Counted from the first letter of the stretch, positions 12,375 to 63,508 are shown. The stretch is DNA of 64,000 bases from an uncultured Vicinamibacteraceae bacterium (GCA_964646815.1 CAZYFH010000008.1:8675-72674); one strand, 5' to 3'. A program made the numbers and translations. The notes: generated by a model not told the origin, from the sequence alone.

Positions 12375-12380
12375 GCGCGC

Positions 12381-14129: not shown

Positions 14130-14239
14130 CTCGAGTAACGTGTACGGCGAAGAATCGTGACGGAAACGGTCAAGACCTTACCTAACGCGTCTTCGTCAAT
14201 TAGTCCACGGAGACCTATCAAATGCTGAGCGAGATTTGG

Positions 14240-17510: not shown

Positions 17511-17560
17511 TCCGGACGAGCTACCGCACGGAGCGGTCGATAGGACGGCGAGGAACGACC

Positions 17561-25067: not shown

Positions 25068-25072
25068 CGCTG

Positions 25073-28597: not shown

Positions 28598-28682
28598 ATG
28601 CGTACCTTCTCGTGTCGTCCCCCGAGGCGTCATGCTCCCCAAGTCTATCGTGCCAGCGACGCAAACACGAGGACCACGCCGG

Positions 28683-45417: not shown

Positions 45418-48400
45418 CTACTCTTCCAATCGCTTCATCCCATTCTCGTAGATCTGGCGCACGCGTCCAGTGATCTCTCGGTAGCGTTGTAGCAGCGCAG
45501 ACCCGGTCGCGGGTTCGATCGGAAGACGATTGGCGACCGGGTCCAGGTCTGCCGGATTGTTAGTGATCGAGCTCACGCTGGTATTGGCCTCGATACGGAC
45601 CGCGGTTTCCAACGTTCGAAGAAAGAGATGCGCATCGCACAATGCGTCGGCGTCGGCGCGATCGACGAACGAGGTGTCAGGCCACGCGCGCAACAGCTGT
45701 CGCGTGCCGGCACCTCGGAACTCCGTGCGCGCTGGACCTTCGCGAAGCTGCAGCGTCTGCACGAGAAAGTCGATGTCGGCGAGTCCGCCGAGCCCGCGCT
45801 TGAGGTCGTGCCGGCCACTCTCGGCTTCGCGCGAGAGCTCGCGCTCGACACGTGATCGCATGTGACGTGCGTACGCCGGAATCTCACTCGTCCACGTGGC
45901 GTAGACGAAATCGTTGACCGCCGCACCGACCTCCTCCGCGAGCGCGGCGTCACCCGCCACGACGCGGCATCGTGTCCAGGCCATCCGCTCCCAGATCTCC
46001 GCGCGCTCGTCGAGATAGCGGCGAAAAGTCACGAGCGGAACGGTGATCGCGCCCTTCTCGCCTTCTGGTCGAAGGCGCGCGTCGAGCTGGTATGCCGACC
46101 CGAACGATGTCCGCGCGTCGAGGAACTCGTGTAGCGCGCGCACGAATCTCTGTTGCCGCTCGAACTGCGCGGCGTCACCGGGATCCCCTCGATAGAGAAA
46201 CACCAGGTCGAGGTCGGAATGCACTGTGAGCTCTCGGCCACCCAACTTGCCGAGTGCCAGGACGACCCAGGCGCCATCGCCAGTGTCCGGCAACCGCTCG
46301 TCGGCGACCTCGCGTGCCGCCGTGTTGACTGCTGCGTCGGCGATTACCGACAGCTTGTTCGTGAGCCGGTCGAGGTGCCCCACCGACAGCCATTCAGCGA
46401 GTGCCTTGAACTCCTCGATCATCTTGATTCTCCGAAACGGATCCCTCAACGCCTCAAGTGTCGTGTCAGGCGCGGCAAGCTCGGCGAACGCCCTTCGGAC
46501 CGCTGCCCCGAACGCGTCCGGATCAAGCGGGGGGACGACGAGCGAATCGAGAAGCTCCGGAAACCGCGCCAACCGCTCTGCGAAGAGGTCGCCCGCATCG
46601 AGCACGATCAAGAGCCGCACGCGCAGGTCGTCGCTTTCGAGCAGACTGCGGTAGAGTGCCGCCGCCGCCCCGGAGCGATCCACGATGGTTTCGAGTCGCA
46701 TCAGCGCTGTCGCCGACGTCACGCCGCTCGCGAGGTCGGGGAGGACCGATGCCAGCAGGTTGGCCAACAGGTTCCGCGTGGCGGACGGTGAGTGGGCGTG
46801 CGAGGGCACGTCGTCGAGCGCGCGGATGGCCCTGAACACGGCGTCGGCGTCGCTGATGCCGCCCGCGCGAAGGTGGTCAATCGCATCCGTTTTACTCATT
46901 TCCCCGGCCAGCACGCGAAAGAACTGGCGGGCTTGGAAGCCGGTATCGTCGCCGCGTCGGTCGAGCAGGCTGGCATAGACGTCGTGCACTCGCACGCGGT
47001 GTCGGTCGAGTTCGGCCATGAGACGCGCGGTGGTGTCGAGCCCGGTGCGTCTGGCCAGAATCCTGAGCTCGGCGTCACTGTCTTTCAGGCTGTGCGTCTG
47101 CGTCTCCTGCACGATCTGCAACCGATGCTCCACCTTGCGGAGAAACTCGTAGGCGGTCTGCATGTCCACGCGCACCGCCTCGTCCACGAACCCGTGCCGT
47201 TCGAGCGCCGCCAGCGCCGACAGCGTGTTGCCGTCCTGCAGGTCGACCACATCCGCTCCGTAGATCAGCTGAAAGACCTGAGTGAAGAGCTCGATCTCCC
47301 TGATCCCGCCGCGACCGACCTTCACGTTGCGTTCGGTGGCCTCGTGCCGCGCGTGCTCGCGATCGGCACGCGCCTTGTAGCGCGCCAGCTCTTCGATCGC
47401 GGCGTGGTCGAGATACTTGCGGTAGACGAACGGGCGAACCATTTCGACGAAGCGTTGGCCCAGTGCGGCGTCGCCCGCGACGGGCCGTGCCTTGATCAGC
47501 GCGAACCGTTCGAAGGTTTCTCCCATGCTCTCGTAGTACTGCGCGCACTGCGCGAGCGACAGGGCGAGGCTGCCGCGCGGTCCCATCGGCCGCAGGCGCA
47601 AGTCGACCCGGTAGAGATAGCCTTCGGCCGTATGTTCTCCAAGCAGTGCCGTCAGTCGCCGCCCGAGTTTCTGGAAACGGTTGTGGGCAGTTCCGTCCTC
47701 CGGTTCGGTCGGCTCGTAGACGTAGACGAGGTCGATATCGGAGCTGTAGTTCAGCTCGCGCCCGCCGAGCTTGCCCATTCCGATTACGGTGAAGGCGCCC
47801 GGGAGCGGGTCCTCCGTGCGGAGCTCGGCCATCGCCACCCGCAGGGCGCCGCTGGCCATCGCATCTGCGAGATTCGACAGCTGCTCCGTGGTCGACCGGA
47901 GTGTGTCGGTGCCGAGAAGGTCCCGTCCCGCGATCCGGAGTATCTCGCGCCGCTGAAACCGGTTCAAGGCGTCGCGACGACGTGTGTCCCTGCTGTCCTC
48001 GCTCAAGAGCCGATCGAGCTCACGTCCGTATGCAATGTGGTCGGGCGGCGATCGATCAAGCTCGCCTTGTAGCCAATGAAAGTACTCCGGACTGCGGATC
48101 AGGATCTCGCTCAGAAACGGGGAGCTGCCGAGGAGCATGGCGAGCACCTGGAGCGAGCGCGGGTCATCGAGCAGATAGCCGAGGAACGAGCTCTTCGGTG
48201 TCCGGGTCGCCATGTAGCGGCAGAACCCGACGAGGGCCGCATCCGGGTCCGGCGCCGCGCCCAGATGCTCGAACAGTGATTCCGCAAGCTCGCCGAGCGC
48301 GAGACGGGTGGGCAGATCTTCCGCTAGGTGCTGCAGGTGCCGGTCGGCCGCTTCCGGGTTGCGGAATCCCCGGGTGCGGAGGAACTGAGCCGCGGCCGCC

Positions 48401-48465
48401 TCTGACAGGTCATATGCCAGAAGCACGTCGCGAGGGTGGACGTCGGACGCCGCGTCATCCGTCAT
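45418..48465 (-). CDS. glnE: Bifunctional glutamine synthetase adenylyltransferase/adenylyl-removing enzyme
   Basis: 1015 aa with two nucleotidyltransferase halves (GMGKLGGRELNYSSDIDLVYVY and LGKLGGRELTVHSDLDLVFLY). Confidence 0.9.
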   Translation of the reverse strand: MTDDAASDVHPRDVLLAYDLSEAAAAQFLRTRGFRNPEAADRHLQHLAEDLPTRLALGELAESLFEHLGAAPDPDAALVGFCRYMATRTPKSSFLGYLLDDPRSLQVLAMLLGSSPFLSEILIRSPEYFHWLQGELDRSPPDHIAYGRELDRLLSEDSRDTRRRDALNRFQRREILRIAGRDLLGTDTLRSTTEQLSNLADAMASGALRVAMAELRTEDPLPGAFTVIGMGKLGGRELNYSSDIDLVYVYEPTEPEDGTAHNRFQKLGRRLTALLGEHTAEGYLYRVDLRLRPMGPRGSLALSLAQCAQYYESMGETFERFALIKARPVAGDAALGQRFVEMVRPFVYRKYLDHAAIEELARYKARADREHARHEATERNVKVGRGGIREIELFTQVFQLIYGADVVDLQDGNTLSALAALERHGFVDEAVRVDMQTAYEFLRKVEHRLQIVQETQTHSLKDSDAELRILARRTGLDTTARLMAELDRHRVRVHDVYASLLDRRGDDTGFQARQFFRVLAGEMSKTDAIDHLRAGGISDADAVFRAIRALDDVPSHAHSPSATRNLLANLLASVLPDLASGVTSATALMRLETIVDRSGAAAALYRSLLESDDLRVRLLIVLDAGDLFAERLARFPELLDSLVVPPLDPDAFGAAVRRAFAELAAPDTTLEALRDPFRRIKMIEEFKALAEWLSVGHLDRLTNKLSVIADAAVNTAAREVADERLPDTGDGAWVVLALGKLGGRELTVHSDLDLVFLYRGDPGDAAQFERQQRFVRALHEFLDARTSFGSAYQLDARLRPEGEKGAITVPLVTFRRYLDERAEIWERMAWTRCRVVAGDAALAEEVGAAVNDFVYATWTSEIPAYARHMRSRVERELSREAESGRHDLKRGLGGLADIDFLVQTLQLREGPARTEFRGAGTRQLLRAWPDTSFVDRADADALCDAHLFLRTLETAVRIEANTSVSSITNNPADLDPVANRLPIEPATGSALLQRYREITGRVRQIYENGMKRLEE

Positions 48466-48504
48466 AACTAGATGCGCTTTGCCTCAACCTCCCGCAACCG
48501 CTAC

Positions 48505-48516
48505 GGGGGGGGGGGG
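48505..48516. repeat. G12 (C12 on the coding strand) homopolymer about 40 nt upstream of the glnE start
   Basis: Read directly from the sequence: ctac-GGGGGGGGGGGG-aggg. Confidence 0.9.
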
Positions 48517-48563
48517 AGGGCGAGTGCCCCACTCCACGGTCGCGCGGCGCGCTGTGCGCGCCT
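48513..48563. repeat. 51-nt GC-rich intergenic repeat, copy 1 (upstream of glnE)
   Basis: GGGGAGGGCGAGTGCCCCACTCCACGGTCGCGCGGCGCGCTGTGCGCGCCT matches copy 2 at 42 of 51 positions. It contains a GGCGCGC-TGT-GCGCGCC hairpin. Confidence 0.6.
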
Positions 48564-48632
48564 ACTGTCTCAACGAAACTTGACACATATGCACGAGTCC
48601 CGGGTTTAAGACAGCAAGTGGGACCGCGATGA

Positions 48633-48661
48633 CCCCTGGGCGGCCTGTCGCAGCCCAGGGG
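48633..48661 (-). terminator. Hairpin downstream of glnA
   Basis: CCCCTGGGC-(11 nt)-GCCCAGGGG forms a 9-bp stem about 20 nt after the glnA stop. No U-tract. Confidence 0.4.
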
Positions 48662-48682
48662 GTCGCTAGGATCGAGCGCGGG

Positions 48683-50119
48683 CTAGATATCAAAATAGAG
48701 CGCAAACTCCCACGGATGCGGCCGCAGGCGAATGGCGTCGACTTCGTTCTCGCGCTTGTAGGCGATCCAGTTCTCGATCACGTCGCGCGTGAACACGTCG
48801 CCCTTCAGCAGGAAGTCGTGATCGGCCTCGAGCGCGTCGAGCACCTCAGAGAGGTCCGCTGGTGTGCTGTCGATCTTCGCGAGCTCCTCCGGCGGCAAGT
48901 CGTAGAGGTCCTTGTCGAGTGGCCCAGGCGGCGTCAGCTTATTCTGGATACCGTCGAGGCCGGCCATCAGCATCGCGCTGAACGCCAGGTAGCCGTTGCA
49001 GGTCGGGTCCGGGAACCGGCACTCGACGCGCTTCGACTTCTCGCTGCTCGAATAGACCGGGATCCGGACGGCGGCACTCCGATTACGCATCGAGTAGATC
49101 AGGTTGATGGGCGCCTCGTAACCCGGGACTAACCGACGATAGGAATTGGTGGTCGGGTTGGTCAGTGCGAGGAGCGCCGGCGCGTGCTTGAGCAGCCCGC
49201 CGATGTAGTAGAGCGCCGTCTTGCTGAGGTCGCCGTACGTGCCGGCCTCGAAGAATTGGTTCCGCTTGCCCTTCCAGATGCTCTGGTGGACGTGCATGCC
49301 CGAGCCGTTGTCCTGGAAGATCGGCTTCGGCATCATCGTGACGACTTTGCCGTGGCGGCGGGCGACGTTTTTGACGGCGTACTTGTACTTGAGGAGCTTG
49401 TCGCCCATGCTCACGAGCGAGTCGAACCGCATGTCGATCTCGGCTTGGCCGGCGGTGCCAACCTCGTGGTGATGTACCTCGATCTCGACGCCGATCGACT
49501 CCAGCATCAGCATCATCTCGGTGCGGATGTCCTGCAAGCTATCCATCGGAGGGACCGGGAAGTAGCCCTCTTTGTACCGCGGTTTGTACCCGAGGTTGTG
49601 CGATGCCCCGGCGCTGTCCGGGTTCTCGACGCGGCCCGCATTCCAGAAACCCTCGGTAGCGTCGATGTGGTAGAAGCCCTCGTTGTAGGTCTGACCGAAG
49701 CGGACATCATCCAGGATGAAGAACTCGGGCTCGGGACCGAAATACGCCGTGTCACCAATGCCCGTGGACTTCAGATAGGCCTCGGCCTTCTGCGCGATGT
49801 GGCGCGGGTCTCGGGAATACGACTCTCCGGTGATCGGGTCCTTCACATTGCAGATCAGGCACAAGGTTGGCGCCGCTGCGAAGGGATCAACAAAGGCCGT
49901 CGCCGGGTCCGGGAACAGCAGCATGTCACTTTCCTGGATCTGCTGGAACCCGCGAATACTCGATCCATCGAAGCCGATCCCCTCGTCGAACACATCAACG
50001 GCGAACTCCTTCGCCGAGACCGTGAAGTGCTGCCAGAGACCAGGCAGATCGACGAATCTTAGGTCGATGGCCACAATGCCCTTCTCCTTGATGAGCGCCA
50101 TGACGTCTGTTGCTTTCAT
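48683..50119 (-). CDS. glnA: Glutamine synthetase type I
   Basis: Canonical GSI blocks are present ([57 protein letters not shown]), including an adenylylation-loop-like region. Confidence 0.95.
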
Positions 50120-50210
50120 CCGTTACCTCCAAAACTCTAGGTGTTGACTACGATGACCAGGGTTTGCGTTTTGTACAGTTCCGAGCTGTCGCACGGCGAG
50201 TCCCGTCGGC

Positions 50211-50543
50211 TCATACCACATCCCGCTCGCCGGTTCGAATGACGCGGCTTTGTTCGACCGGCATGACGAACACGCGACCGTCGCCGATCTCGCCGGTTCG
50301 CGCGGCTGTCATGATCGCGTCGATTGCCTCCTCGACAGCCTCGTCCGCCACGACGACTTCGATCTCCATCTTGGGCAGCAGGCTGACCTCATATTCGCTT
50401 CCTCGATAGACTGGTGAATGCCCACGCTGGCGCCCGTGGCCCCGCACTTCCGTCACCGTCAGGCCCGCGATGGCGTTTCGGGCGAGCGCGTCCTTGATGT
50501 CGTCGACCTTGTTCGGGCGTACGATGGCCTTGATGAGTTTCAT
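50211..50543 (-). CDS. glnB: Nitrogen regulatory protein P-II
   Basis: MKLIKAIVRPNKVDDIKDAL...TVTEVRGHGRQRGH..VYRGSEY (T-loop Tyr) ...TGEIGDGRVFV. The start overlaps the glnD stop. Confidence 0.9.
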   Translation of the reverse strand: MKLIKAIVRPNKVDDIKDALARNAIAGLTVTEVRGHGRQRGHSPVYRGSEYEVSLLPKMEIEVVVADEAVEEAIDAIMTAARTGEIGDGRVFVMPVEQSRVIRTGERDVV

Positions 50544-53116
50544 GACGTCGGTCCTACGGTCAGCGCCGTCTCCACCTCGACCCGGAGCTGCCGTTGCGCC
50601 GTCTCGGAAAGCTTCTGGTTGGCCTGGGTGATATGAAAAACGTCGATCGCGCGGCTGCCTTCGGTCGAGATCAAGACCAGGTCGATGTCGCACTGCCGGT
50701 TCGATATGGCTCGGCTGACGCGATACAGCAGGCCCCATGCGTTCTCAGCGACGATCTCCACGACGGTGAAGCGGCGGGAGTGATGGTTGTCGAAATGGAC
50801 AACCGGAACAATACGCTGCTTGCGCGAGGATCCGGCGAGCGCTCGGGCACGGCCGCGGAGCTTGGTGTCGATATCGACCTTGCCTGCGACGACGTCGCCG
50901 AGTAGTTGGGTCAGCTCCGTTGCCGCGCTCTGGTGGAGCTGAAGGTAGTCCTCGTGGTCGGCGAACTGGAAGAGGTCGAGGACGATATCGCCCTGGTTCG
51001 TCATCGCCTGACCGCGCAGGATGTCCATCCCGAAGTAGGACAACACGCCGCAGACGTTGGCAAAGAGCCGTGGCTGATCGAACGCGATGGCACTCAGCTC
51101 CCAGGCCGATCCTGTCTCCTCGAGTGCGCAGCGGACCTCGCCAGGCCGAATGTCACGGGACAGGCGCACGTGCTCGTAGACGCGGGCCCGGTCGACCAGT
51201 CGCAGGTAACGCTGCGGATAGCCTTCGAGAAACGTCGTGAGCTCACCCTCCGGAATATCGTCGGGACGCGCGGTCACGACCTCGTCGATTGTCGGTACTG
51301 TGTCGTCGATCACGTCGTCACCGTAGCCAAGCGTCAGGCGGTTGTACGTCTCGACATACAGCCGCCACAGCATGTCCTCCTTCCACGGCGTCATCACATC
51401 GGGGCCAACCGCGTCGACGTCAACGAGCGTCATAAGACACAGGAGCTTGAGCCGCTTCTCGCTGCCGACGAGCCGCGCGAACTGCGTGACGACCTCTGGA
51501 TCGGTCACGTCCCGACGGAACGCCGCAAGCGACATCTGTAGGTGATGGCGAATCAGGAATACGACGTCGGTAATCGAACGCTCAGGGACCTTGATTCGCC
51601 GGAGCGCGCCGACGGCCATCCGCACGCCCTCCTCCGAGTGGTTCCGGTTGGTCCATTTGCCTACGTCGTGGAACAGAAGGGCGAGCACGAGCAGCTCGGG
51701 GTTCGACAGTTCGGCGAGGACGTCGCCGAAGCGCTGCCGGCCAGGTGTGTGCGGCGTCGTGAGTCGCTCGAGGTTGCGAATGGTCAATAGCGTGTGCTCA
51801 TCGACGGTGTACTTGTGATAGAAGTCTCGGATTACGAGGCAGTAGATCTTCTGGAACTCAGGAAAGATACGCCCCAGCAGCCCGCTGCCATGCATCTCGG
51901 AGAGCCGCTCGTAGAGACCAGCGCGGGGGCGCAGCATGCGCATCAGCCGGTCCCGTTCATCGGTGGACGGGAGAAATCGTTCCGGCGCATACCGCTCGCC
52001 GTGCCGCTCGATGCACGTCAATACCTGATCCGAGACAGGCACGTGCGCGTCGAGCGCCGCTTCGAACGGGCACAGCCACGTATCGGGACGAAGTGACGCG
52101 CGCGTCCCGTCGGTGAAGCGGACGCCGTCCCACGCCCGTTCCAGGTCGTGTCCGATCGCGGCCGGCGTCGACGTCGACGGCGCCGAAAGCGACTTCATGA
52201 CGGCCGCCAACGAGCGGGCGATGAGACGCGCGTGGTGGAAGTATGTGCTCATGAGCGCTTCCACCTGGCGCGGCCGCTGGTTGCCCGAGGATCCGAACAG
52301 CGTCGCTACCGTCTCCTGGAGCTCGTGACTCAAATCGTTGAGATTCCTTCCGCGTTCGAGATGCAGGATGGAACGAATGCGCAGTAGGAAATCCTCGGCT
52401 TCGTCCAGGCGTCCCGCGTCGCTCGTCGCACGCCTGGCTAGGTCACGGTCGGCGAGCCGCGCAAGCAAGCGGATGGCGGTCGCATCCCGCAGCCCGCCTG
52501 GCGCGTCCTTGATGTCGGGCTCGAGGTGGAACACCGTCCGGTTGAACTGGGCGTGGCGCTGCGCGGTCAGCTCGACCAGGGCGTTGCGCATCGGCGCGTG
52601 CCAGTCCGACCCTTCGCTCAGGCACGCGGCAACGAAGCGCTCGAAGACGGCGCGATCGCCCGCGAGGAAACGCGCCTCGAGGATCGCTACGAGGTATTCG
52701 GGGTTGTCGACCTCGACGTGGTCGAAATCGCGGAGTTCGCGCACTTGGTGGCCGACGTCGAGACGAAGGTCCCAGAGCGGATGCAGGACCAATCTCAGAA
52801 ACCGTTCCTCGGCGGCCGCGATTGGTCCGCCAAAGACGACCATGAGATCGAGGTCCGAGTGGAGGCAGAGCTGTGCCCGGCCGTAGCCGCCTATGGCCAG
52901 CAGCGCGACCGGCGTCGTGGTTTCGCCGCGCGCCGATGTGTAGATGTCCTGAATGAGCTTGTCGATACGCATCGAGTAGCGGTCAAGGGCCGACAACCCA
53001 GCGCGCGCCAGACGCGCATCGGCGACGAGCTCGGCACGCGCGACGTCGAGCTGCGACCCCCAGCGCTCAGACGCCACGGCTGTCTCGACGGGAGCGATGT
53101 GTGCAACGCGAAGCAT
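50540..53116 (-). CDS. glnD: [Protein-PII] uridylyltransferase/uridylyl-removing enzyme
   Basis: NTase block (GGYGRAQLCLHSDLDLMVVF), HD domain (LLFHDVGK) and two C-terminal ACT-like regions. 858 aa. Confidence 0.9.
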   Translation of the reverse strand: MLRVAHIAPVETAVASERWGSQLDVARAELVADARLARAGLSALDRYSMRIDKLIQDIYTSARGETTTPVALLAIGGYGRAQLCLHSDLDLMVVFGGPIAAAEERFLRLVLHPLWDLRLDVGHQVRELRDFDHVEVDNPEYLVAILEARFLAGDRAVFERFVAACLSEGSDWHAPMRNALVELTAQRHAQFNRTVFHLEPDIKDAPGGLRDATAIRLLARLADRDLARRATSDAGRLDEAEDFLLRIRSILHLERGRNLNDLSHELQETVATLFGSSGNQRPRQVEALMSTYFHHARLIARSLAAVMKSLSAPSTSTPAAIGHDLERAWDGVRFTDGTRASLRPDTWLCPFEAALDAHVPVSDQVLTCIERHGERYAPERFLPSTDERDRLMRMLRPRAGLYERLSEMHGSGLLGRIFPEFQKIYCLVIRDFYHKYTVDEHTLLTIRNLERLTTPHTPGRQRFGDVLAELSNPELLVLALLFHDVGKWTNRNHSEEGVRMAVGALRRIKVPERSITDVVFLIRHHLQMSLAAFRRDVTDPEVVTQFARLVGSEKRLKLLCLMTLVDVDAVGPDVMTPWKEDMLWRLYVETYNRLTLGYGDDVIDDTVPTIDEVVTARPDDIPEGELTTFLEGYPQRYLRLVDRARVYEHVRLSRDIRPGEVRCALEETGSAWELSAIAFDQPRLFANVCGVLSYFGMDILRGQAMTNQGDIVLDLFQFADHEDYLQLHQSAATELTQLLGDVVAGKVDIDTKLRGRARALAGSSRKQRIVPVVHFDNHHSRRFTVVEIVAENAWGLLYRVSRAISNRQCDIDLVLISTEGSRAIDVFHITQANQKLSETAQRQLRVEVETALTVGPTS

Positions 53117-53202
53117 GGTGGTTGTTGGCCATCCGGTGTTCGACGTGACTCCAGCTCGACATCATGCCAGGACGCGCCGCCGCGCGGAGTGTCGTCACAA
53201 CT

Positions 53203-54744
53203 CTATCGAAATCGTCGGCAGTCGATGCCGTACTTTTTCACCTTGTAGTTGACGATCCGTTCCGTCGAGTCGAGGAGCTTTGCGGCTTTGACCCGGTTGC
53301 CGCGCGTGGTCTTGAGCGCGTCCTGCAGCAGATCCTTTTCGTAGGCGCCAACGGCGTCGGCCAGCGAGACGTTCGTGGTCGTCCCCGACGCCTCACCCGT
53401 CTGCAGGGACGGCGGTAGATGATGCGCATGAACGACGCTGCCGTCGCAGACCAGTACCGCGCGCTCGATGGCGTTCTCCAACTCCCGCACGTTGCCGGGC
53501 CAGTGATATGCCATGAACATATCGATGGCGGGGGTCGAGACGCGTTTCACGCTCTTCCCGTGCTCGACGGAGTATTTGTCGAGAAAGCTGTCGGCGAGGA
53601 GCAACACGTCGGTCTTTCGCTCCCGTAGCGGCGGAACGAAGATCGTGAACACATCGAGCCGGTAGTGGAGGTCCTCGCGAAAGGTCCCGGCGGCGATGGC
53701 CTTCTCGAGGTCGCCGTTGGTCGCAGCAATCATCCGCACATTTGCCTTGACGGAGGCGGTGCCGCCAAGACGTTCGAATTCCTTCTCCTGAAGCACGCGG
53801 AGCAGCTTGACCTGGGTCGAGAGGTTGATGTCGCCGATCTCGTCCAGGAAGACCGAGCCGCCCTCCGCGAGTTCGAACCGGCCCTTTTTTCGCGTGGCCG
53901 CGCCCGTAAAGGCGCCTTTCTCGTATCCGAACAGCTCGGATTCGATCAGGGAATCCGGGAGCGCCGCACAGCTCACCTTGACGAACGGCTTCTTGCCGCG
54001 CGGCGAGTTGTAGTGGATGGCGTGCGCGATCAGTTCTTTGCCGGTACCGGACTCGCCGCGAATCAGGACTGTCGTGTTGGTGGCGGCGACGCGTGCGATC
54101 TGCTCGTAGACTTGCCGCATCGGACCGCTCGTCCCGATTATCTGGGAAAAGTCGTAGCGCTCTTTCAGCTCTGCCTTTAGGTGGATGTTTTCGTCGAGCA
54201 GCCGCTGACGCTCGGCCTCGGCGGCCTGTTGCAGGCGAATCGCCTGACCAAACATGGTCGACACGACTCGACAGACATGTAGGTCGCGATCGTAGTTGCG
54301 CGTCTTCTCGAATGGGAAATCGACGTTGAGCGCGCCGATCGACCTCCGCTCGCCAGGGATCGGCACCGACATGAAAGTGATCTCCGAGCCTGCTCCCTGC
54401 TGCCGTCGTCCGGTCCGATGGAGAAACATCGGTTCCTGGCTGATCTGTGGCACGACGACCGGCTTGCCGCTGGCCACGACGCGCCCCGTGATCCCCTCGC
54501 CCATCTCCCATTCGGCGTGTCGGCCTGCACCGGTCAGGCCCGCGGACGCCTCGACCCGCAGCCGGCCGGTATCCGGGTCGGCGAGCACGACCGCGCTTCG
54601 AATCACGCCGTAGTCATGGTCCAGCAACTCGAGGGCACGCTGGAGACCGGCGCGCGGGCTCTGCGCCACAGTTAGCGCTTGGTTGATCTCGGCGAGGATC
54701 GCCAGCGGTCTGACGTCGTCGGCGAGCGCCTTCAGCTTCTTCAT
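53203..54744 (-). CDS. Sigma-54-dependent transcriptional activator, GAF-AAA+-HTH (NifA-like architecture, no receiver domain)
   Basis: N-terminal GAF-like region, Walker A GESGTGKE, the GAFTGA motif (EKGAFTGA) and a C-terminal Fis-type HTH (RGNRVKAAKLLDSTERIVNYKVKKYGI). The start is uncertain (TTG 54792, ATG 54774 or 54744). Confidence 0.85.
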   Translation of the reverse strand: MKKLKALADDVRPLAILAEINQALTVAQSPRAGLQRALELLDHDYGVIRSAVVLADPDTGRLRVEASAGLTGAGRHAEWEMGEGITGRVVASGKPVVVPQISQEPMFLHRTGRRQQGAGSEITFMSVPIPGERRSIGALNVDFPFEKTRNYDRDLHVCRVVSTMFGQAIRLQQAAEAERQRLLDENIHLKAELKERYDFSQIIGTSGPMRQVYEQIARVAATNTTVLIRGESGTGKELIAHAIHYNSPRGKKPFVKVSCAALPDSLIESELFGYEKGAFTGAATRKKGRFELAEGGSVFLDEIGDINLSTQVKLLRVLQEKEFERLGGTASVKANVRMIAATNGDLEKAIAAGTFREDLHYRLDVFTIFVPPLRERKTDVLLLADSFLDKYSVEHGKSVKRVSTPAIDMFMAYHWPGNVRELENAIERAVLVCDGSVVHAHHLPPSLQTGEASGTTTNVSLADAVGAYEKDLLQDALKTTRGNRVKAAKLLDSTERIVNYKVKKYGIDCRRFR

Positions 54745-54786
54745 CGTCCGTGTCTTGGTGGCCCTCGAAACCATGGCCGAAACCCG

Positions 54787-54803
54787 TGCCAAGGAACGTG
54801 CCA
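54787..54803 (-). promoter_or_regulatory. Sigma-54-like element (perfect -24, imperfect -12) upstream of the activator gene
   Basis: The minus strand reads TGGCACG-TTCC-TTGGCA. The -24 box matches the consensus TGGCACG, but the -12 box has an extra G (TTGGCA versus TTGCA), so the GG/GC spacing is off by one. Confidence 0.2.
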
Positions 54804-54822
54804 GGTCAAGGAGGGCCAGGTA

Positions 54823-55000
54823 CTAGTGACCTGTCTCGGGTGAATCAAGAGCGCTCGCCGGGCAGGGCATCCCGCGATGGCCGGCGCGGGACCATGCGTC
54901 AGCGCGGTCACAGACGGTGTGTTTGCTCCCTCGTCGCACTTTGTCAGCCGGGCGCCGCGTGCCGGTGAACACTACTGATTCACCCGATACAGGCCACTAG
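54823..55000 (-). mobile_element. MITE-like non-autonomous element, copy A (178 bp, ~25-bp terminal inverted repeats)
   Basis: The ends are CTAGTGACCTGTCTCGGGTGAATCA ... TGATTCACCCGATACAGGCCACTAG (23 of 25 TIR match). The reverse complement aligns to copy B at about 152 of 177 positions with one indel. There is no ORF, and the terminal CTAG contains the gltD TAG stop. Confidence 0.7.
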
Positions 55001-56442
55001 ACGGGCGCGGGTAGCCCGGACGAGCCCATGAGATAGGCATCGATTCCGCGCGCGGCGCTCCGCCCTTCCGCGATGGCCCACACGATCAGCGATTGACCGC
55101 GCTGCATGTCGCCAGCCGTGAAGATCGCCGGAACGCTGGTCATCCAGTTCGTATCCCGCCACACGTTGCCCCGATCGGTCAGTCGCACCCCGAGCTCGGT
55201 CAGCATGCCTGGCCGCTCGGGACCCAGGAACCCCATCGCCAGCAGCACGAGGTCGGCGTCAACCTGAAACTCGCCGCCCGCGACCGGATCGAACACCGGC
55301 CGGCCGTTCCGACTTGTCATCTCGACCCTTGTTCCGTAGAGCTTCTCCACCCGGCCGTTCTGCGCACCGCTGAATCGCTGTGTCGACACGGCGTAGCGTC
55401 GATCGCCGCCTTCCTCGTGAGCGGCCGAGGCGCGGAAGACCTGGGGCCACGTCGGCCAGGGATTGTCCTCGGCCCGCGAGTCGGGCGGGCGCGGCAGCAG
55501 CTCGAACTGGGCGATCGATCGAGCGCCCTGACGGTGCACGGTGCCGAGGCAGTCCGCGCCGGTGTCTCCGCCGCCGATAATGACAACATGTTTGTCCTGG
55601 GCCGTGATCGCGCTCTCCTCCGGGACCACGTCCCCTTCGCAGCGGTGGTTCTGCTGCGTTAGATAGTCCATCGCGAAATGGATGCCCGCGAGCTCGCGTC
55701 CCGGCACGTTGAGGTCTCGCGGCCAGCCGGCGCCTCCGGCGAGCAACATCGCGTCGTGCCCGCGGCGGATGCGCTCGGCCGGGGTGTCGACTCCCACGTT
55801 GACGCCCGTCTGGAAACGGACACCCTCCTCCTCCAGGATCTGGAGGCGTCGGTTAAGGAACCGCTTCTCCATCTTGAACTCGGGGATGCCATAGCGCAGG
55901 AGCCCGCCGATACGGTCGGCTTTCTCGAAGACCGTGACAGTGTGGCCCGCGCCATTGAGCTGGTCGGCGGCCGCGAGGCCGGCTGGGCCCGAGCCGACGA
56001 TGGCCACCGTCTTGCCGGTGCGCGCGTCGGGCGGCGTCGCGCGCACCCACCGTTCCTCGAACGCCCTCTCGATGATCGCCAGCTCGATCGATTTGATCGT
56101 GACCGGCTCGCGGTCGATCGCGAGCACGCACGACCCCTCGCACGGCGCCGGGCACAACCGTCCGGTCCACTCGGGAAAGTTGTTGGTCTTGTGCAGGCGG
56201 TCGATGGCCGCCCGCCATTTGCCCCGATACACGAGGTCGTTCCAGTCGGGAATCAGGTTGCCGAGGGGGCATCCGTCGTGGCAGAAGGGAATGCCGCAAT
56301 CCATGCAGCGCGCCCCCTGCGCACGGAGGTCTGGTGCGACATACGGCAGATAGACTTCGCGCCAGTCGGTGACTCGCCTTGCCACGGGGCGGGTCGGCGC
56401 CGTCTGACGTTCGATCTCGAGAAAGCCCTTCAACTTGCCCAT
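54997..56442 (-). CDS. gltD: Glutamate synthase small subunit (NADPH)
   Basis: Fe-S Cys clusters (CMDCGIPFCHDGCPLGN...CPAPCEGSC), FAD/NAD Rossmann motifs (VAIVGSGPAGLAAA, VVIIGGGDTGADC) and a C-terminal GRSAARGIDAYLMG. Confidence 0.9.
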   Translation of the reverse strand: MGKLKGFLEIERQTAPTRPVARRVTDWREVYLPYVAPDLRAQGARCMDCGIPFCHDGCPLGNLIPDWNDLVYRGKWRAAIDRLHKTNNFPEWTGRLCPAPCEGSCVLAIDREPVTIKSIELAIIERAFEERWVRATPPDARTGKTVAIVGSGPAGLAAADQLNGAGHTVTVFEKADRIGGLLRYGIPEFKMEKRFLNRRLQILEEEGVRFQTGVNVGVDTPAERIRRGHDAMLLAGGAGWPRDLNVPGRELAGIHFAMDYLTQQNHRCEGDVVPEESAITAQDKHVVIIGGGDTGADCLGTVHRQGARSIAQFELLPRPPDSRAEDNPWPTWPQVFRASAAHEEGGDRRYAVSTQRFSGAQNGRVEKLYGTRVEMTSRNGRPVFDPVAGGEFQVDADLVLLAMGFLGPERPGMLTELGVRLTDRGNVWRDTNWMTSVPAIFTAGDMQRGQSLIVWAIAEGRSAARGIDAYLMGSSGLPAPV

Positions 56443-56451
56443 GCGTCTCGT

Positions 56452-59400
56452 CTACTGCGCGCCGATCAGCTCGGCAAACTCCGGTTCCCGCGACTCGGCG
56501 CGCGCCCGAGCTTCGGCGGCCAGCACCCGCTTGTAGTCGCGCGGCATGACTTTGACGAAGCGCCCGCGGATCGACGCCCACTGATCGACCACCCGTTTCG
56601 CGACCGCACTGCCCGTGAGCCGCGCGTGGCGCGTGAGGAGCCCGCGCACGAACTCGTCGTCGTCATCCTCGAGCGATTCGAGGTCGACCATGCCAGCATT
56701 GCAGCGCCGCTCGAAGTCGCACGCCGCATCGAGGACGTATGCGATGCCGCCACTCATTCCTGCGGCGAAGTTCCGCCCTGTGGGGCCGATGATGACGACG
56801 CGGCCACCGGTCATGTACTCGCAGCCGTGGTCACCAACTGCCTCCACGACGGCATGGGCTCCGCTGTTGCGAACGGCGAACCGTTCACCGGCCACGCCCC
56901 GCACGAACGCCTCGCCGCCGGTCGCCCCATACAGCGCGACGTTGCCGATGATGATGTTGTCTTCGGCCGCGAAGGTGGAACGGGCCGGCGGGTAGAGGAC
57001 CAGCCGGCCCCCGGACAGCCCCTTGCCGAAGTAGTCGTTCGCGTCACCCTCGATGGTCAACGAGACTCCGCGCGGCACGAACGCCCCAAAGCTCTGGCCG
57101 GCTGAGCCCGTGAACTTGATGCGGATCGTGTCGTTGGGTAGGCCCGCGGCCCCCCAACGGCGGGTGATGGCGGAGCCCAGCATCGTGCCGACTGTCCGGT
57201 TGACGTTGCGGATCGGCAAGTTGATCTCAACCGGCTCACGCCGGTCCAGCGCCGCCGCACTCATGTCGATGAGCGTGGCATCGAGTGCTCGGTCGAGCCC
57301 GTGGTCCTGCGGTCGCACGCACCGGCGACCCACCGAGTAGGGCACCTTTGGCTGGTACAGGATGGAGGTCAGATCCAGCCCCCGCGCCTTCCAGTGGTCG
57401 ATCGCGCCGTGCATGTCGAGGCGGTCGGCGCGTCCGATCATCTCGTCCATCGTGCGGAACCCGAGGCTGGCCATCAGCTCTCGGATCTCCTCGGCCACGA
57501 ACCAGAAATATTGCTCCACGAACTCGGCCGTGCCGGTGAAGTGCTTGCGAAGCTCGGGGTTCTGGGTCGCGACACCCACGGGACACGTATCGAGGTGGCA
57601 GACACGCATCATGATGCATCCGGAGACGACCAGGGGCGCCGTTGAGAAGCCGTACTCCTCAGCGCCGAGCAGGGCAGCTACCACGACGTCACGGCCAGTC
57701 TTCATCTGGCCATCCACCTGCACCACGATCCGGTCGCGCAGATTATTCAGCACGAGGACCTGCTGCGTTTCGGCCAGCCCGAGCTCCCACGGTACTCCGG
57801 TGTGCTTGATGCTCGTGAGCGGCGACGCTCCCGTGCCGCCGTCATGACCCGAGATCAACACGACATCCGAATGGGCCTTCGCCACCCCGGCGGCGACCGT
57901 CCCAACGCCCACTTCGGCCACGAGCTTGACGTGAATCCGGGCATCCGGGTTCGCGTTCTTCAGGTCGTGGATCAACTGCGCCAAGTCTTCGATCGAATAG
58001 ATGTCGTGATGCGGAGGCGGTGAGATTAGGCCCACGCCGGGCGTCGAGTAGCGCACCTTCGCAATCCACGGGTAGACCTTGAAGCCGGGCAGCTGTCCGC
58101 CTTCGCCTGGCTTGGCGCCCTGCGCCATCTTGATCTGGAGGTCGTCCGAGTTGACGAGATACTCGCTCGTCACGCCGAAGCGGCCCGACGCGACCTGCTT
58201 GACCGCGCTCCGGCGCAGATCGCCGTTCACGTCTGGCGTGTATCGTGCCGGGTCTTCGCCGCCTTCACCGGTGTTGGATTTGCCGCCGAGGCGGTTCATC
58301 GCGATTGCCAGCGTCTCGTGCGCTTCCGCGCTGATCGACCCGTAGGACATCGCTCCGGTCGCGAACCGGGGGAAGATTGCCTCCGCTGGTTCCACCTCAT
58401 CGAGCGGCACCGGCTTCGCCGCAGGCTTCAGGTCGATCAGTCCGCGGAGCGTCGCCCGTGTGCGACTCTGGTCGTTCACCAGCCCGGCGTACTCTCGATA
58501 CACGTCGTGCTGCCCGCTCCGGCTGGCGTGCTGGAGCTTGAAGACGGTCTCCGGGTTGAAGAGGTGGTATTCGCCATCTCGCCGCCACTGATACTCGCCG
58601 CCCGTGTCGAGTTCGTCGTCCACCGGGCCACGCACCGGGAACGCCCGCACATGCCGCCGGATGACCTCCTCGGCCACCGTGTCGATGCCGATGCCGCCGA
58701 CGCGTGACGCAGTCCAGGTGAAGTAGCGGTCGACAAAGGCCTGGTCCAGACCGATCGCCTCGAAAATCTGTGCCCCGCGGTAACTCTGCAGGGTCGAAAT
58801 GCCCATCTTCGACATCACCTTGAGCACACCCTTCGTGCACGCCTTGATGTAGTGCCGGATGGCCTGGGTGAGCTCGAGATCCTGGAGTTCGCCGTCCAAC
58901 AGGAGCTCCGCGATCGTCTCGAAGGCAAGGTACGGGTTGACGGCGGCGGCGCCGTAGCCGACCAGCAGCGCCATGTGGTGGCACTCACGCGCCTCCCCCG
59001 TTTCGATGATCAACGCGCACTTGGTTCGGCTGCCTTCACGCACGAGGTGGTGGTGCACGCCCGCTGTGGCCAGGAGTGCCGGGATGGGGGCATGCGCGCG
59101 ATCCATGCCACGATCCGAAAGCACGATCATGGTCGCGCCGTCCGCCACCGTCGCGCTGGCCTTTCGGCATAACGCCGTCATCGCCGGTTCGAGTCCCGCG
59201 GTGCCAGCGCCAGGGTCGAACAGCATGTCGAGAGTGGCAGCCCGGAACGCGGGGTCGGTCAGATGACGCAGCTTCGCAAGGTCGTCGTTGTCCAGGACCG
59301 GATCGTCGATCCTAATGTGGTGACACGACGCTGCCTCGGGTGCCAGGAGATTGCTCTCGGCGCCGAGCATCGATCCCATGTCGGTGACCAGCTCCTCACG

Positions 59401-61047
59401 GATCGCGTCCAGCGGAGGGTTCGTCACCTGCGCGAACAACTGCTTAAAGTAGTCATAGAGTAGCCGCGAGCGGTCCGAGAGCACCGCCAGGGCCGTGTCG
59501 GTGCCCATGGAGCCGAGCGGCTCGGCTCCATGCTGAGCCATCGGGCCGATGAGAATCCTGAGGTCCTCCTCGGTGTAACCAAACGCGCGTTGGCGCCGGC
59601 GCACGGTGTCGTGCGACGGCGGCGGCGCGTACGGCGCGGCCGGGACGTCGTCGAGGTGGACGAGTTCCGCGTCGAGCCATGCGGCGTACGGGTGCTCGGC
59701 CGCGAGCTCTCGCTTGATCTCTTCGTCATCGATGATCCGGCCCTGCGCCGTGTCGACGAGGAAGATGCGTCCGGGGTGCAGCCGTTCCTTGATCCGCACG
59801 TTCTCCGGTGGGACATCCAGCACGCCGACTTCAGAGGCCATGATGACCATGTCGTCGGTCGTCACGTAGTACCGCGAGGGACGTAGGCCGTTACGGTCGA
59901 GCACCGCGCCAATCACTGTCCCGTCAGTGAACGCGATGGATGCCGGTCCGTCCCACGGCTCCATGAGCGAGGCGTGATACTGGTAGAACGCGCGGCGCTC
60001 CGGCGACATCGATTCATGGTTCGACCACGGTTCCGGGATCATCATCAGCATGGCATGGGCGAGCGGCCGGCCGGTCTGCACGAGGAACTCGAGGACGTTG
60101 TCAAACGTGGCGGTGTCGCTTTGGCCCTCCTTGATCAGCGGAAACAGCTTGGCGAGGTCGTCGCCGAACAGCTCTGAGCGACACAGCGTCTCGCGCGCCC
60201 GCATCCAATTGATGTTGCCGCGCAGCGTGTTGATCTCGCCGTTGTGCGCGACATAGCGGTAGGGGTGGGCCAGCGGCCATGACGGGAATGTGTTGGTACT
60301 GAACCGCGAGTGCACGAGGGCAAGCGCCGATTCGACATCGGGGTCGGCGAGATCCGGGAACATCGTCTCGAACTGATCGGCGATAAGCATGCCCTTATAG
60401 ACAATGGTGTTCGACGAAAGGCTGGCAATGTAAAACAGATGGCGTTCGGCGAGCTCGAGGCCGTCGACGTCAAGCGTCACGCGTCTCCGGATGACGTATA
60501 GGTCGCGCTCGAACCGGGCGCGTGGGTCGGGCACATTGGCGCGCGCGGGACTGCGGCCGATGATGATCTGCCGAATCACCGGCTCGCCACTCCGGGCCGT
60601 CGCGCCGAGTGGCGTGTCGTCCGTCGGCACGTCTCGCCAACCGAGGAACTGGTGGCCCTCGTCGGTCACGATGCGAGCAAAGAGCTCCTCGATGTGACGG
60701 CGCTCCGACTGATCCTGTGGCAAGAACACCATCCCGACCCCGTACGCTCCAGCCTCGGGGAGGTCGATACCGAGCGTGCCGGCGGCCTTCTTCAGGAACT
60801 TGTGCGGCAGTTGCAAGAGCATGCCTGCCCCGTCCCCGGTGTTCGCCTCGCAGCCGCAGGCACCCCGATGCGAGAGGTTGAGGACAACTTCGAATGCCTG
60901 CCGCACCAGCTTGTGCGACCGATTACCTGCGATGTTGACGACGAAACCGACACCGCACGAATCGTGCTCGTTCCGCGGATCGTACAGACCCTGCGCCGGC
61001 GGCAGTGCGCCGCGGAGTCCGCGGGGGAGAGGAGGTGGCCCGCTCAT
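56452..61047 (-). CDS. gltB: Glutamate synthase large subunit
   Basis: The amidotransferase N-terminus has the HDSCGVGFV nucleophile Cys after a ~30-aa propeptide. FMN/3Fe-4S and GXGXG domains are present. ATG at 61047 (the ORF track start 61182 overlaps lysR). Confidence 0.95.
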
Positions 61048-61052
61048 CTGCG

Positions 61053-62063
61053 TCAACTCGCGCCCCGGTTGGAGACGGCGGCGTGCGATGGGCCCGCGCG
61101 CCCGGACTCCGAGGGCGGCACGTGTCGCGCGGCCGGCCCGCGCAGCTGGCGGCCGACCGCGCCGGCAACGCCAGGAGCGCACAGTACCTTGATGAACTCG
61201 GTGACGGCTGGGTTGAGGCGTCGCTTGCGGCGATGGATAATGTTCAGGGGGCGGACGAACGGCGTATCTCCGGCGGCGGTCTGCAACCCGATCTTCACGA
61301 GCGTGCGTCGCTGCACCTCGCGTCTCAGGGTCGCTTCGGGGAGGATGGCGACGCCGGCGCCGTCCTCGATTGCTTGCTTGATGTTCTCGATGTTGTCGAA
61401 CTCGGCCGCGACCTGAACATCGGCGTCATGGCGTCGGAGAAAACGGTCTATCTCCCGGCGCACTGGCAATCCCCGGTCGAACGTGACGAATGCCTCGCCG
61501 GCGAGCTCTCGCGGTCCGAGCGCCGCCTTCTCCTGCGCGAACCGATGCGTGGGCAGGCAAGCGACCACCATCGTCTGGTTTTGCCAAGGGATTGCCGTAA
61601 GCTCGCGGCCCGGGGTCGCAAACGAGATGAGCCCGAGATCCGATTGGTCGTTGAGCACCCGCATGTAGATCTGATCCGGATGCATGTATTCGAGGTCGAC
61701 CCCGACACCGGGCACCGATGCGCGGAACTGGTCGACGTACTGGCTGAGATCGTGTAGCCGGACGGAGTAGATGGATGCGAGCCGGACTGTGTAACCGGAG
61801 GGGTGCTTCCGCCGCTGCACCGCCTCTTCCAGCTCGTGATACCGGTCGACGATCTCCTGACAGCCCTTGAAGAACAACTTGCCCTCTGGCGTCAGCAACC
61901 ATGGGCGCTTGGAGCGGTCGATGAGCTGCGTCCCGAGTCGTTTCTCTATCTGGCGCACGGCTTGGCTGGCCGCCGACTGGCTCACCGAGTTGGCCATCGC
62001 GCCGCGTGAGAAGCTCTGGTGGCGAACCACATCGCAGAAAATATTGAGGGCCTCAAGGTGCAT
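61053..62063 (-). CDS. LysR-family transcriptional regulator
   Basis: N-terminal wHTH ([51 protein letters not shown]) plus a LysR substrate-binding fold. It ends 5 nt before the gltB start on the same strand. Confidence 0.85.
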
Positions 62064-62071
62064 GGCCAGCC

Positions 62072-62100
62072 ACTTTACCCACCAGGGTCACTAATGGCAA
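62072..62100 (-). promoter_or_regulatory. Candidate sigma70 promoter for lysR (near-leaderless)
   Basis: The minus strand reads TTGCCA, a 17-nt spacer, TAAAGT, then 8 nt and the ATG. Confidence 0.3.
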
Positions 62101-62225
62101 GTCGTCTAGATATTAATGTTTATGATTCAGTGTAGTGCCGCGCCACGGGCCGATCTAGAGATCGTTAAATTCTTGTAACATATTTACTATCATGCACTTA
62201 CGTATTTCTTGAGGAGCATTTAAAG
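62101..62225. promoter_or_regulatory. AT-rich island (two AT-rich blocks) in an otherwise GC-rich genome
   Basis: The sequences tagatattaatgtttatgattcagtgtag and gatcgttaaattcttgtaacatatttactatcatgcacttacgtatttcttgaggagcatttaaag lie upstream of lysR. They contain T-N11-A-type dyads but no clear consensus box. Confidence 0.35.
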
Positions 62226-62610: not shown

Positions 62611-62787
62611 CTAGTGGCCTGGATCGGGTGGATCGGTAGTGGTCACCGGCGCGCGACGCCCGGCTGACAAGGCGCGACGAGGGAGGAGACGCACCGTCTG
62701 TGAATACGCTGATGCATGGTCCAGCGCCGGCCATCGCTGGATGCCCCGCCCGGTGAGGCTCTCGATTCACCTGATACAGGCCACTAT
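62611..62787 (+). mobile_element. MITE-like non-autonomous element, copy B (177 bp)
   Basis: The ends are CTAGTGGCCTGGATCGGGTGGATCG ... CGATTCACCTGATACAGGCCACTAT. It is ~85% identical to the reverse complement of copy A. The terminal CTA (62784-62786) is the TAG stop of the adjacent minus-strand gene. Confidence 0.7.
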
Positions 62788-63368: not shown

Positions 63369-63410
63369 ATTTAAACGGGGCTTCACCCCGACCCCCTGCG
63401 GGCGCTGCGT

Positions 63411-63461
63411 GGGGACCCCGAGAGCCCCACTCCGCGCCCGCGAGGCGTGCTGTGCGCGCCT
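63411..63461. repeat. 51-nt GC-rich intergenic repeat, copy 2 (upstream of the 62784..63368 gene)
   Basis: GGGGACCCCGAGAGCCCCACTCCGCGCCCGCGAGGCGTGCTGTGCGCGCCT has the same orientation and a similar distance from the downstream start codon as copy 1. Confidence 0.6.
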
Positions 63462-63508
63462 TGGCCGTTCGCCACCGAGGACCCTCTCGTGTCGGCCCGC
63501 ATGAAGGT

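Follow-up and report, generated by a model that had tools for sequence, protein, structure and literature searches.

How is nitrogen assimilation controlled in a bacterium whose genes for it lie side by side, with a lone sigma-54 activator of NifA-like architecture in their midst? The question is raised by a 64,000-nucleotide stretch of DNA from an uncultured Vicinamibacteraceae bacterium, a soil acidobacterium (GCA_964646815.1 CAZYFH010000008.1:8675-72674; hereafter the window, meaning the whole stretch analysed). Eight genes, lysR, gltB, gltD, the activator gene, glnD, glnB, glnA and glnE, lie contiguously on its minus strand at 45418-62063 in a map of open reading frames (ORFs), with identities from NCBIfam and Pfam profile matches. 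The activator, an enhancer-binding protein (EBP), combines a GAF domain, an AAA+ domain and a helix-turn-helix (HTH), and the original prediction was that it governs the entire supercluster in place of NtrB and NtrC. The reading that we consider probable is a different one: the locus is a nitrite- and ammonium-assimilation neighbourhood conserved in the Vicinamibacterales and divided into several transcription units rather than read as one sigma-54 operon, an adjacent sigma-54 module has been deleted, and EBP acts on unlinked promoters.

The layout on which the original prediction was built is as it described. The eight genes are co-directional and compact. The glnD stop and the glnB start share an ATGA, a 4-nt overlap by which glnB is predicted to be translationally coupled to glnD, and the TGA of lysR is followed by 5 nt and then by the ATG of gltB, which places the regulator in the orientation of gltB and all but fuses the two. 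The gene starts agree with those called independently on a public contig 99.97% identical to the window. EBP is the single GAFTGA-type activator in the 64 kb, within which there is neither NtrB nor NtrC, nor an amt gene; the sole two-component pair in the window (21802-23465) is OmpR-type. Its N terminus is a GAF domain (Pfam GAF_2, followed by Sigma54_activat, AAA_lid_14 and HTH_8) with no Response_reg match, and no NtrB-like kinase gene is adjacent. On paper, no component of the post-translational nitrogen cascade is missing: GlnB with Tyr51, GlnA with its KDLYDLP site, GlnD and GlnE are all encoded. GlnD scores slightly under the cut-off of TIGR01693 (489 against 519 bits) and has the complete GlnD architecture. 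Both enzymes match models of actinobacterial type: PRK14109, the best model for GlnE, and PRK03381, one of those matched by GlnD.

A model in which EBP substitutes for NtrC and drives the whole 17-kb cluster from sigma-54 promoters, sensing a metabolite or PII, draws on the mid-cluster position of EBP and the lack of NtrBC in the window; we nevertheless regard it as unlikely. We built a position weight matrix (PWM) for -24/-12 promoters and applied it to the window and its relatives, with 100 composition-matched (Markov-1) random 64-kb sequences as the null. The top score in the window was 10.4, below the maxima of 99 of the 100 random sequences (mean maximum 14.2). Within the cluster the scan likewise went against the prediction: the highest score (8.5) falls inside the EBP coding sequence, and the sole candidate in non-coding DNA, CTGGCACGTTCCTTGGC, scores 7.6, with a good -24 box and a non-canonical -12 box (TTGG for TTGC), about 14 nt upstream of the EBP ATG. 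No -24/-12 promoter was found in the window upstream of gltBD, glnD-glnB, glnA or glnE. A TGGCAT upstream of glnD was discarded, as it has the wrong spacing, sits on a deletion junction and is not conserved. Matching the consensus TGGCAC-N5-TTGCW with two mismatches was uninformative (13 matches, 21 expected), and the PWM was used instead. The low maximum in the window may mean that spurious sigma-54 sites are avoided, or it may stem from a limit of the Markov-1 null.

With EBP as the query, species-representative genomes yielded 584 relatives, from which 80 loci were kept, the recognition-helix peptide VNYKVKKY being one bait for loci; metagenome contigs encoding near-identical EBPs were also compared, and the proteins of the window were mapped onto all loci. 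The closest species-representative relative of EBP comes from a Vicinamibacterales metagenome-assembled genome (85% identity). Matches at 48-67% identity over the best aligned segment come from other Acidobacteriota, Myxococcota, Desulfobacterota, Spirochaetota and bacteria of the Planctomycetes-Verrucomicrobia-Chlamydiae (PVC) group.

The compact gene order singled out by the original prediction is kept in six relatives (L001, L003, L081, L082/83 and L084), and there it is longer: (nirA-orf194-)lysR-gltB-gltD-EBP-glnK-amt-TorF-like porin-hypothetical gene-glnD-glnB-glnA, with glnE next after glnA wherever the fetched DNA extends far enough (L081, L082/83). All six carry the extra module of glnK, amt, porin and hypothetical gene between EBP and glnD. 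The co-orientation of lysR and gltB is also kept, with gaps from -4 to about +100 nt. Judged by gene order, the supercluster is a conserved feature of the Vicinamibacterales that is normally larger than it is here. It also continues beyond the edge of the window, into nirA.

Compared with L081, the window is collinear at about 88% nucleotide identity, with four exceptions: a short scar stands in place of the glnK-amt-porin-hypothetical module, a miniature inverted-repeat transposable element (MITE) sits at the gltD stop codon, about 480 extra bp, which include a second MITE copy, lie upstream of lysR, and 160 bp are inserted between glnA and glnE. Contigs from four independent samples (L085-L087 and a contig from SRR22804949 among them) encode exactly the EBP protein of the window; at nucleotide identities of at least 99.9%, all have the 86-nt gap from EBP to glnD and the MITE, and all lack the module. 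Because contigs of four independent samples share this layout, the deletion is real and fixed in the population from which the window comes. A faulty assembly was considered as an alternative and rejected, the junction being identical in the four samples. The porin and the hypothetical gene are both gone from the window. In the relatives, the TorF-family putative porin gene (gcw_chp), with its own sigma-54 promoter, and the hypothetical gene stand behind amt (13956-14858 and 15078-15932 in L081; also in L001, L082 and L084); the porin may provide an outer-membrane route for ammonium, co-regulated with AmtB.

In the relatives, sigma-54 promoters and an enhancer palindrome are found within the glnK-amt module and just upstream of EBP. 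Before glnK, the promoter PWM scores 20.6 in L001 (TTGGCACGGTTCTTGCT), 19.9 in L003, 16.0 in L082 and 14.1 in L081, and before the porin gene 17.6 in L081 and 16.7 in L082. The positional homologues of CTGGCACGTTCCTTGGC before EBP reach 18.9 in L001 (canonical, TTGGCAAGGAAATTGCA), 16.0 in L081 and 14.4 in L082; the position of this element is kept in the window and these three loci, each time with the ATG 12-15 nt downstream. Before lysR/gltB, glnD or glnA, the scan of the relatives gave no convincing sigma-54 promoter. One match about 270 nt upstream of lysR in L081, TTGGCAACTCTCCTGCA (12.8), was rejected: it belongs to the coding sequence of orf194 and has no conserved counterpart in either the window or L082.

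The enhancer was recognized by its recurrence. Strict enumeration of 5+5 palindromes downstream of EBP genes gave little; once one mismatch was allowed, the motif CTACA-N4-TGTAG emerged, and two such palindromes, CTACATTTTTGTAG and CTACATTTCTGTAG, lie downstream of EBP in L001. Across 83 loci, 45 copies with at most one mismatch were counted no more than 500 bp from EBP genes (0.73 expected and at most 4 in composition-matched simulations of these flanks), and 14 copies in the remaining 1.17 Mb. In loci of Spirochaetota, Desulfobacterota and PVC bacteria, paired sites about 31 bp apart lie 100-170 bp upstream of strong sigma-54 promoters, which precede amtB-glnK (L048, L062, L060, L029 and L030) or glnA (L031, L038 and L046). 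This is the classic architecture for enhancer-binding proteins, and it identifies genes of ammonium uptake and assimilation as the predicted direct targets of the EBP family. A PWM derived from the palindrome sites gives four sites for L001 in the interval between EBP and glnK, and a single site there for L003 and for L081.

Nowhere in the 64 kb is a credible sigma-54 promoter or enhancer left. The cluster in the window has no site by this PWM and no palindrome in its non-coding parts; its only palindrome with at most one mismatch is inside the EBP coding sequence, consistent with chance. Within the Vicinamibacterales, then, the recognizable targets of EBP are predicted to be glnK-amt, the porin gene and EBP itself, and most of these have been deleted in the lineage of the window. 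An NtrC-like role would fit L031, L038 and L046, loci of other phyla with the enhancer and a sigma-54 promoter before glnA or glnA-gltBD; set against it are the lack of an enhancer palindrome in the cluster, the lack of suitable promoters in the relatives apart from the doubtful, unconserved match in L081, and the conserved sigma-70-type promoter of lysR-gltBD. The claim that the GAF activator governs the supercluster instead of NtrBC found no support in these comparisons. In Cystobacter fuscus (L005, 9590-9885) and Archangium (L006), the gene of the orthologue, at 67% identity, is itself preceded by three or four CTACA-N4-TGTAG-like sites. The flanks fetched there gave no tblastn match to gln, amt or glt genes, and the myxobacterial regulon of the family may differ.

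The glutamate synthase (GOGAT) genes appear to be under another kind of control. The sole minus-strand sigma-70-like match in the cluster stands directly before lysR, and its sequence is kept in L081 and L082, where the neighbouring DNA is not. This suggests a near-leaderless lysR-gltB-gltD operon with its own regulator as the first gene: lysR is probably the first gene of the gltBD operon, and gltBD are probably controlled by the co-transcribed LysR protein. LysR scores under the cut-off of every specific NCBIfam model, that of GltC included (NF053705, 106.4 bits against 350). Farther along, the 86-nt gap between EBP and glnD and the 91-nt gap between glnB and glnA show neither a conserved promoter nor a terminator. 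Alignments upstream of glnD and across glnB-glnA revealed no conserved promoter, only the ribosome-binding site of glnA, and a scan for intrinsic terminators found none in the minus-strand intergenic regions. The assignment of glnD-glnB(-glnA) to one transcription unit is therefore an inference. Promoter-like elements stand 8-15 nt before the ATG of lysR and of EBP (window 62064-62103 and 54774-54804; L001 9907-9940; L082 9831-9860), which suggests leaderless or near-leaderless mRNAs in this lineage.

If its neighbouring targets are lost, is EBP still at work? The protein consists of a GAF domain (residues ~25-190), a predicted signalling helix (~161-206), an AAA+ domain with Walker A GESGTGKE and GAFTGA (residue 287), and a Fis-type HTH with the recognition helix RIVNYKVKKY. 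Its best NCBIfam model is TIGR01817 (NifA; 485.5 bits, under the cut-off of 528.85) and its best full-length solved relative is Azotobacter vinelandii NifA (9qq6, a NifL-NifA complex, E = 5e-109). The closest solved GAF domain by sequence is that of Aquifex aeolicus Nlh1 (4g3k; phmmer E = 4.7e-18 over 168 residues), with which it has the motifs GEGITG...P.V.P.ISQEP.FL and F..VPI in common; the signature GEGITG...ISxEPxFL is invariant or nearly so in the alignment of the EBP family. The GAF domain as modelled superposes on the GAF domain of Nlh2 (template-modelling score 0.87, root-mean-square deviation 2.4 Å). The AlphaFold model, made from a shallow alignment, has one long helix at 161-206, with a predicted local distance difference test (pLDDT) score of ~70-89 to residue 200; it can be relied on for this helix and the GAF domain only. 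EBP is a member of a known, poorly characterized Nlh1/NifA-like group that spans several phyla.

Between the window and L081, EBP has 96% protein identity, a synonymous divergence (dS) of ~0.44 and a ratio of nonsynonymous to synonymous substitution rates (dN/dS) of 0.040, the lowest of the cluster (glnA 0.053, lysR 0.085, glnD 0.173), and its ORF and all its catalytic motifs are intact. Because it combines the lowest dN/dS in the cluster with intact catalytic motifs, the comparison argues for an EBP that is still functional, most simply on unlinked promoters. It is highly improbable that EBP is an orphaned, functionless relic heading to decay after target loss. Such a fate would suit the deletion of its only recognizable local targets and enhancers, as well as the landing of a MITE 20 bp upstream of its promoter-like element; it sits poorly with an intact ORF that retains Walker A and GAFTGA, with the identity to L081 and the low dN/dS, and with the identical protein in four samples.

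Another way in which EBP could have kept a function is local action through non-canonical sites, either autoregulation at TGGCACGTTCCTTGG or repression or activation at sigma-70-type promoters in the manner of FleQ, modulating read-through from gltD to glnD-glnB-glnA. The conserved position of the sigma-54-like element in the window, L081, L082 and L001 and the short gap between EBP and glnD (86 nt, with no hairpin resembling a terminator) would be compatible with it. We think it very unlikely, given a -12 box without GC at the canonical spacing and a PWM score of 7.6, and with no enhancer nearby, the lone match of at most one mismatch lying within the EBP coding sequence as chance would allow.

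The reading that we favour, several transcription units and an EBP working elsewhere, can be put as follows. The units would be (nirA-orf194), lysR-gltB-gltD from its sigma-70-type promoter, EBP behind its weak sigma-54-like element, glnD-glnB(-glnA), and glnE. By analogy with textbook systems, GlnD would uridylylate PII at Tyr51 according to the glutamine level, and PII would steer GlnE to adenylylate or de-adenylylate glutamine synthetase (GS) at Tyr406. A. vinelandii NifA responds to 2-oxoglutarate and Azospirillum-type NifA to PII-UMP; in the EBP family, the AAA+ domain is most likely kept inactive by the GAF domain, by way of the signalling helix, until a signal of nitrogen status is received, perhaps a ligand such as 2-oxoglutarate, perhaps PII-UMP. 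An active EBP oligomer would then assemble on paired CTACA-N4-TGTAG sites, which are spaced by ~31 bp and precede a -24/-12 promoter by 100-170 bp, and remodel the sigma-54 holoenzyme, which would open the promoters of amtB-glnK, of the porin gene and, in some phyla, of glnA. In the lineage of the window, a 4657-bp deletion has taken glnK-amt-porin-hypothetical together with the enhancers, and small MITEs have inserted beside three genes. Because the deletion removed the sigma-54 module and its enhancers, the cluster no longer offers EBP a recognizable target; as an intact and strongly conserved protein, EBP most likely works on unlinked sigma-54 promoters elsewhere in the genome.

Several points weigh against this reading. 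Promoters and enhancers were called by sequence motif only, with PWMs built here, and the promoter scores of 14-17.6 in L081 and L082 are within the chance range for long sequences and convincing by position only. The position-conserved element before EBP leaves some room for sigma-54 transcription within the cluster. Enhancers can work over distances of kilobases, and also when they are located within coding regions. The bait VNYKVKKY favours proteins of the same DNA specificity; distant family members with a different helix (ERIMGLRV) still carry CTACA-N4-TGTAG. The dN/dS value is a pairwise average that would miss relaxed selection after a recent deletion. Finally, the model of EBP is poor outside the GAF domain (mean pLDDT 56, AAA+ below 50), and its AAA+ fold matches, at a root-mean-square deviation of ~19 Å, were disregarded.

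How does EBP compare with better-known regulators? NifA has the same domain order and GAFTGA. EBP differs from it in scoring below the NifA cut-off, in lacking the NifA-type inter-domain Cys motif, in its recognition helix (RIVNYKVKKY rather than the TPRQ type), and in its surroundings: the window has no nif genes and no nifL, and none are listed among the genes of the relatives' loci. The NifA enhancer is TGT-N10-ACA, and the site of the EBP family has instead ACA-N4-TGT within CTACA-N4-TGTAG. NtrB/NtrC shares its niche with the EBP family, namely sigma-54 activation of amtB-glnK and glnA from paired upstream enhancers, but NtrC has a receiver domain and a partner kinase; EBP has neither, and its signal must enter via the GAF domain. 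Studholme et al. reportedly described, in 2000, an Aquifex NifA-like protein that binds upstream of glnBA. Nlh1 of Aquifex aeolicus (GAF structures 4g3k and 4g3w) has the GAF-AAA+-HTH arrangement of EBP in an organism without nitrogenase, and is presumed to be a nitrogen-assimilation regulator held off by its GAF dimer and a coiled coil until an unknown ligand binds (review, PMC9866876). The comparison with EBP covers the GAF domain only, the phylum and the thermophilic lifestyle differ, and the local targets of EBP are deleted.

In other bacteria, too, activators of GAF or one-component type are tied to nitrogen genes. Leptospira EbpA, described with two GAF domains, activates amtB in an EbpA-RpoN pathway (PMC12655853). 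In Desulfovibrio vulgaris, the one-component EBP DVU1949 is predicted to control amtB-glnB, glnA and gltB-type operons, and DVU0569, also a one-component EBP, is the predicted regulator of alanine dehydrogenase (PMC4641369). The DNA-binding helix of DVU0569 ends in RIVNYKVKKY exactly as that of EBP does (53203-53290; PMC4641369 supplement), whereas its predicted site (TGG-N16-CCA type) and that of DVU1949 differ from CTACA-N4-TGTAG.

The setting of EBP also has partial parallels. Bacillus subtilis GltC, the activator of gltAB, is a LysR-family regulator beside glutamate synthase genes, as here, but is divergent from gltAB, whereas the lysR of the window is co-oriented and 5 nt upstream of gltB. 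Actinobacteria have an amtB-glnK-glnD operon and adjacent glnA and glnE. The Vicinamibacterales relatives resemble them in having glnK-amt...glnD, and glnA and glnE side by side, and differ in that a single block also takes in nirA, the GOGAT genes, a LysR-type regulator and an activator of sigma-54 promoters, and in that their phylum makes use of sigma-54. In the literature we found nothing on Nlh1-like regulators in Acidobacteria; one genomic survey of these bacteria mentions only an amtB-glnK operon (PMC5900883).

A wider proposal is attractive, although we hold it tentatively and at somewhat less than even odds: the Nlh1-like GAF activators of Acidobacteriota, Myxococcota, Desulfobacterota, Spirochaetota and PVC bacteria could be one orthologous family, a primary one-component regulator of nitrogen status that replaces NtrBC and works through the conserved, so far undescribed enhancer CTACA-N4-TGTAG, with the lineage of the window as a case in which the regulator was uncoupled from its ancestral amtB-glnK target yet retained. 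If so, the regulator would serve a larger set of unlinked genes, which a scan of genomes for the two motifs could reveal directly. Acidobacteria are among the most abundant soil bacteria, and their nitrogen control is essentially unstudied; the outcome is a testable regulatory model for the whole order, comprising a one-component GAF activator, an enhancer motif and sigma-54 promoters. The locus also shows that adjacency alone over-predicts a regulon, as the genes for GOGAT, GS, GlnD and GlnE lie beside the activator without its signals, and the deletion lineage offers a natural experiment on a regulator after loss of its neighbouring target operon. The most useful by-products are the enhancer motif and the spread of the EBP family across phyla.

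Table 1. Coordinates of genes, candidate promoters, repeats and the deletion scar in and around the nitrogen cluster (window numbering)
Feature	Position	Strand	Evidence or remark
glnE, bifunctional GS adenylyltransferase/adenylyl-removing enzyme	45418-48465	-	NF010707, 652 bits (cut-off 625); two GlnE domains
Repeat family B, copy 1	48468-48627		160-bp insertion between glnA and glnE; absent from L081
glnA, type I glutamine synthetase	48683-50119	-	TIGR00653, 660 bits; adenylylation site KDLYDLP, Tyr406
glnB (PII)	50211-50543	-	P-II domain; Tyr51 present
glnD, PII uridylyltransferase/uridylyl-removing enzyme	50540-53116	-	TIGR01693; GlnD_UR_UTase, HD and ACT domains
Deletion scar	53164-53201		38 bp in place of the 4657-bp glnK-amt-porin-hypothetical module of L081
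EBP, one-component sigma-54 activator	53203-54774	-	GAF, Sigma54_activat, AAA_lid and HTH_8 domains
Sigma-54-like element CTGGCACGTTCCTTGGC	54788-54804	-	PWM 7.6; ~14 nt upstream of the EBP ATG
MITE family A, copy 1	54823-55000		178 bp; 39-nt terminal inverted repeats (CTAGTGGCCTGTATCGGGTGAATC...); between gltD and EBP
gltD, glutamate synthase small subunit	54997-56442	-	TIGR01317, 701 bits
gltB, glutamate synthase large subunit	56452-61047	-	NF008730, 1747 bits
lysR-type regulator	61053-62063	-	HTH_1 and LysR_substrate domains
Sigma-70-type promoter TTGCCA-N17-TAAAGT	62072-62100	-	Ends 8 nt before the lysR ATG
MITE family A, copy 2	62618-62780		At the orf194 stop codon; terminal inverted repeat matches
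orf194, conserved hypothetical gene downstream of nirA	62784-63368	-	80% amino acid identity to a 194-residue ORF of L081
Repeat family B, copy 2	63369-63565		~197-bp insertion between nirA and orf194; absent from L081
nirA-family (nitrite/sulfite reductase) gene, 3' end	63566-64000	-	87% nucleotide identity to L081 1620-2054

At the upstream end of the neighbourhood, orf194 gave no match in Pfam or NCBIfam. The L081 counterpart of the truncated gene at the window edge matches the NirA family NF007126 (E = 7.5e-79, under the cut-off) and Pfam NIR_SIR.

The MITE that the original prediction placed between gltD and the activator gene is there, and it has a second copy, about 85% identical, at orf194. 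The terminal inverted repeats of copy 1 are 82% complementary, and the element contains no transposase. The stop codon of gltD lies within the CTAG at which copy 1 is inserted, a position where L081 has 14 bp; copy 1 is also present in L085-L087 and absent from the orthologous site of L081. Copy 2 lies in a 654-bp stretch that matches only 174 bp in L081. Copy 1 is flanked by CTAG at both ends, with CTAG as the empty site in L081, and copy 2 by ATAG and CTAG, which suggests an IS630/Tc1-like TA/CTAG target preference; the MITEs may be linked to IS630-type elements, although no parent element was found. Both copies fall exactly on stop codons (the TAG of gltD and the TAG of orf194) within CTAG or ATAG, the stop codon coming from the MITE end or from the target site.

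The copies of repeat family B have ~100 nt in common (48468-48570 in copy 1). They are GC-rich, with a hairpin; copy 1 widens the gap between glnA and glnE, and copy 2 splits nirA and orf194, which overlap in L081. Within copy 1, in the glnA-glnE spacer, lies a C12 tract (48505-48516, minus strand) that is the sole indel among four near-identical contigs, with C12 in the window and L085 and C9 in L086 and L087. The difference may mean that this tract upstream of glnE is hypervariable, or it may have arisen as an artefact of sequencing or assembly.

Elsewhere, the window encodes three dehydrogenases dependent on pyrroloquinoline quinone, a cytochrome c gene, a DUF1501/PSD1/PSCyt (planctomycete cytochrome) pair and sdhAB-like genes (4332-6506, 15807-19609, 23604-28720 and 11631-14129), and its GC content falls to 0.59-0.61 at 10-14 kb.

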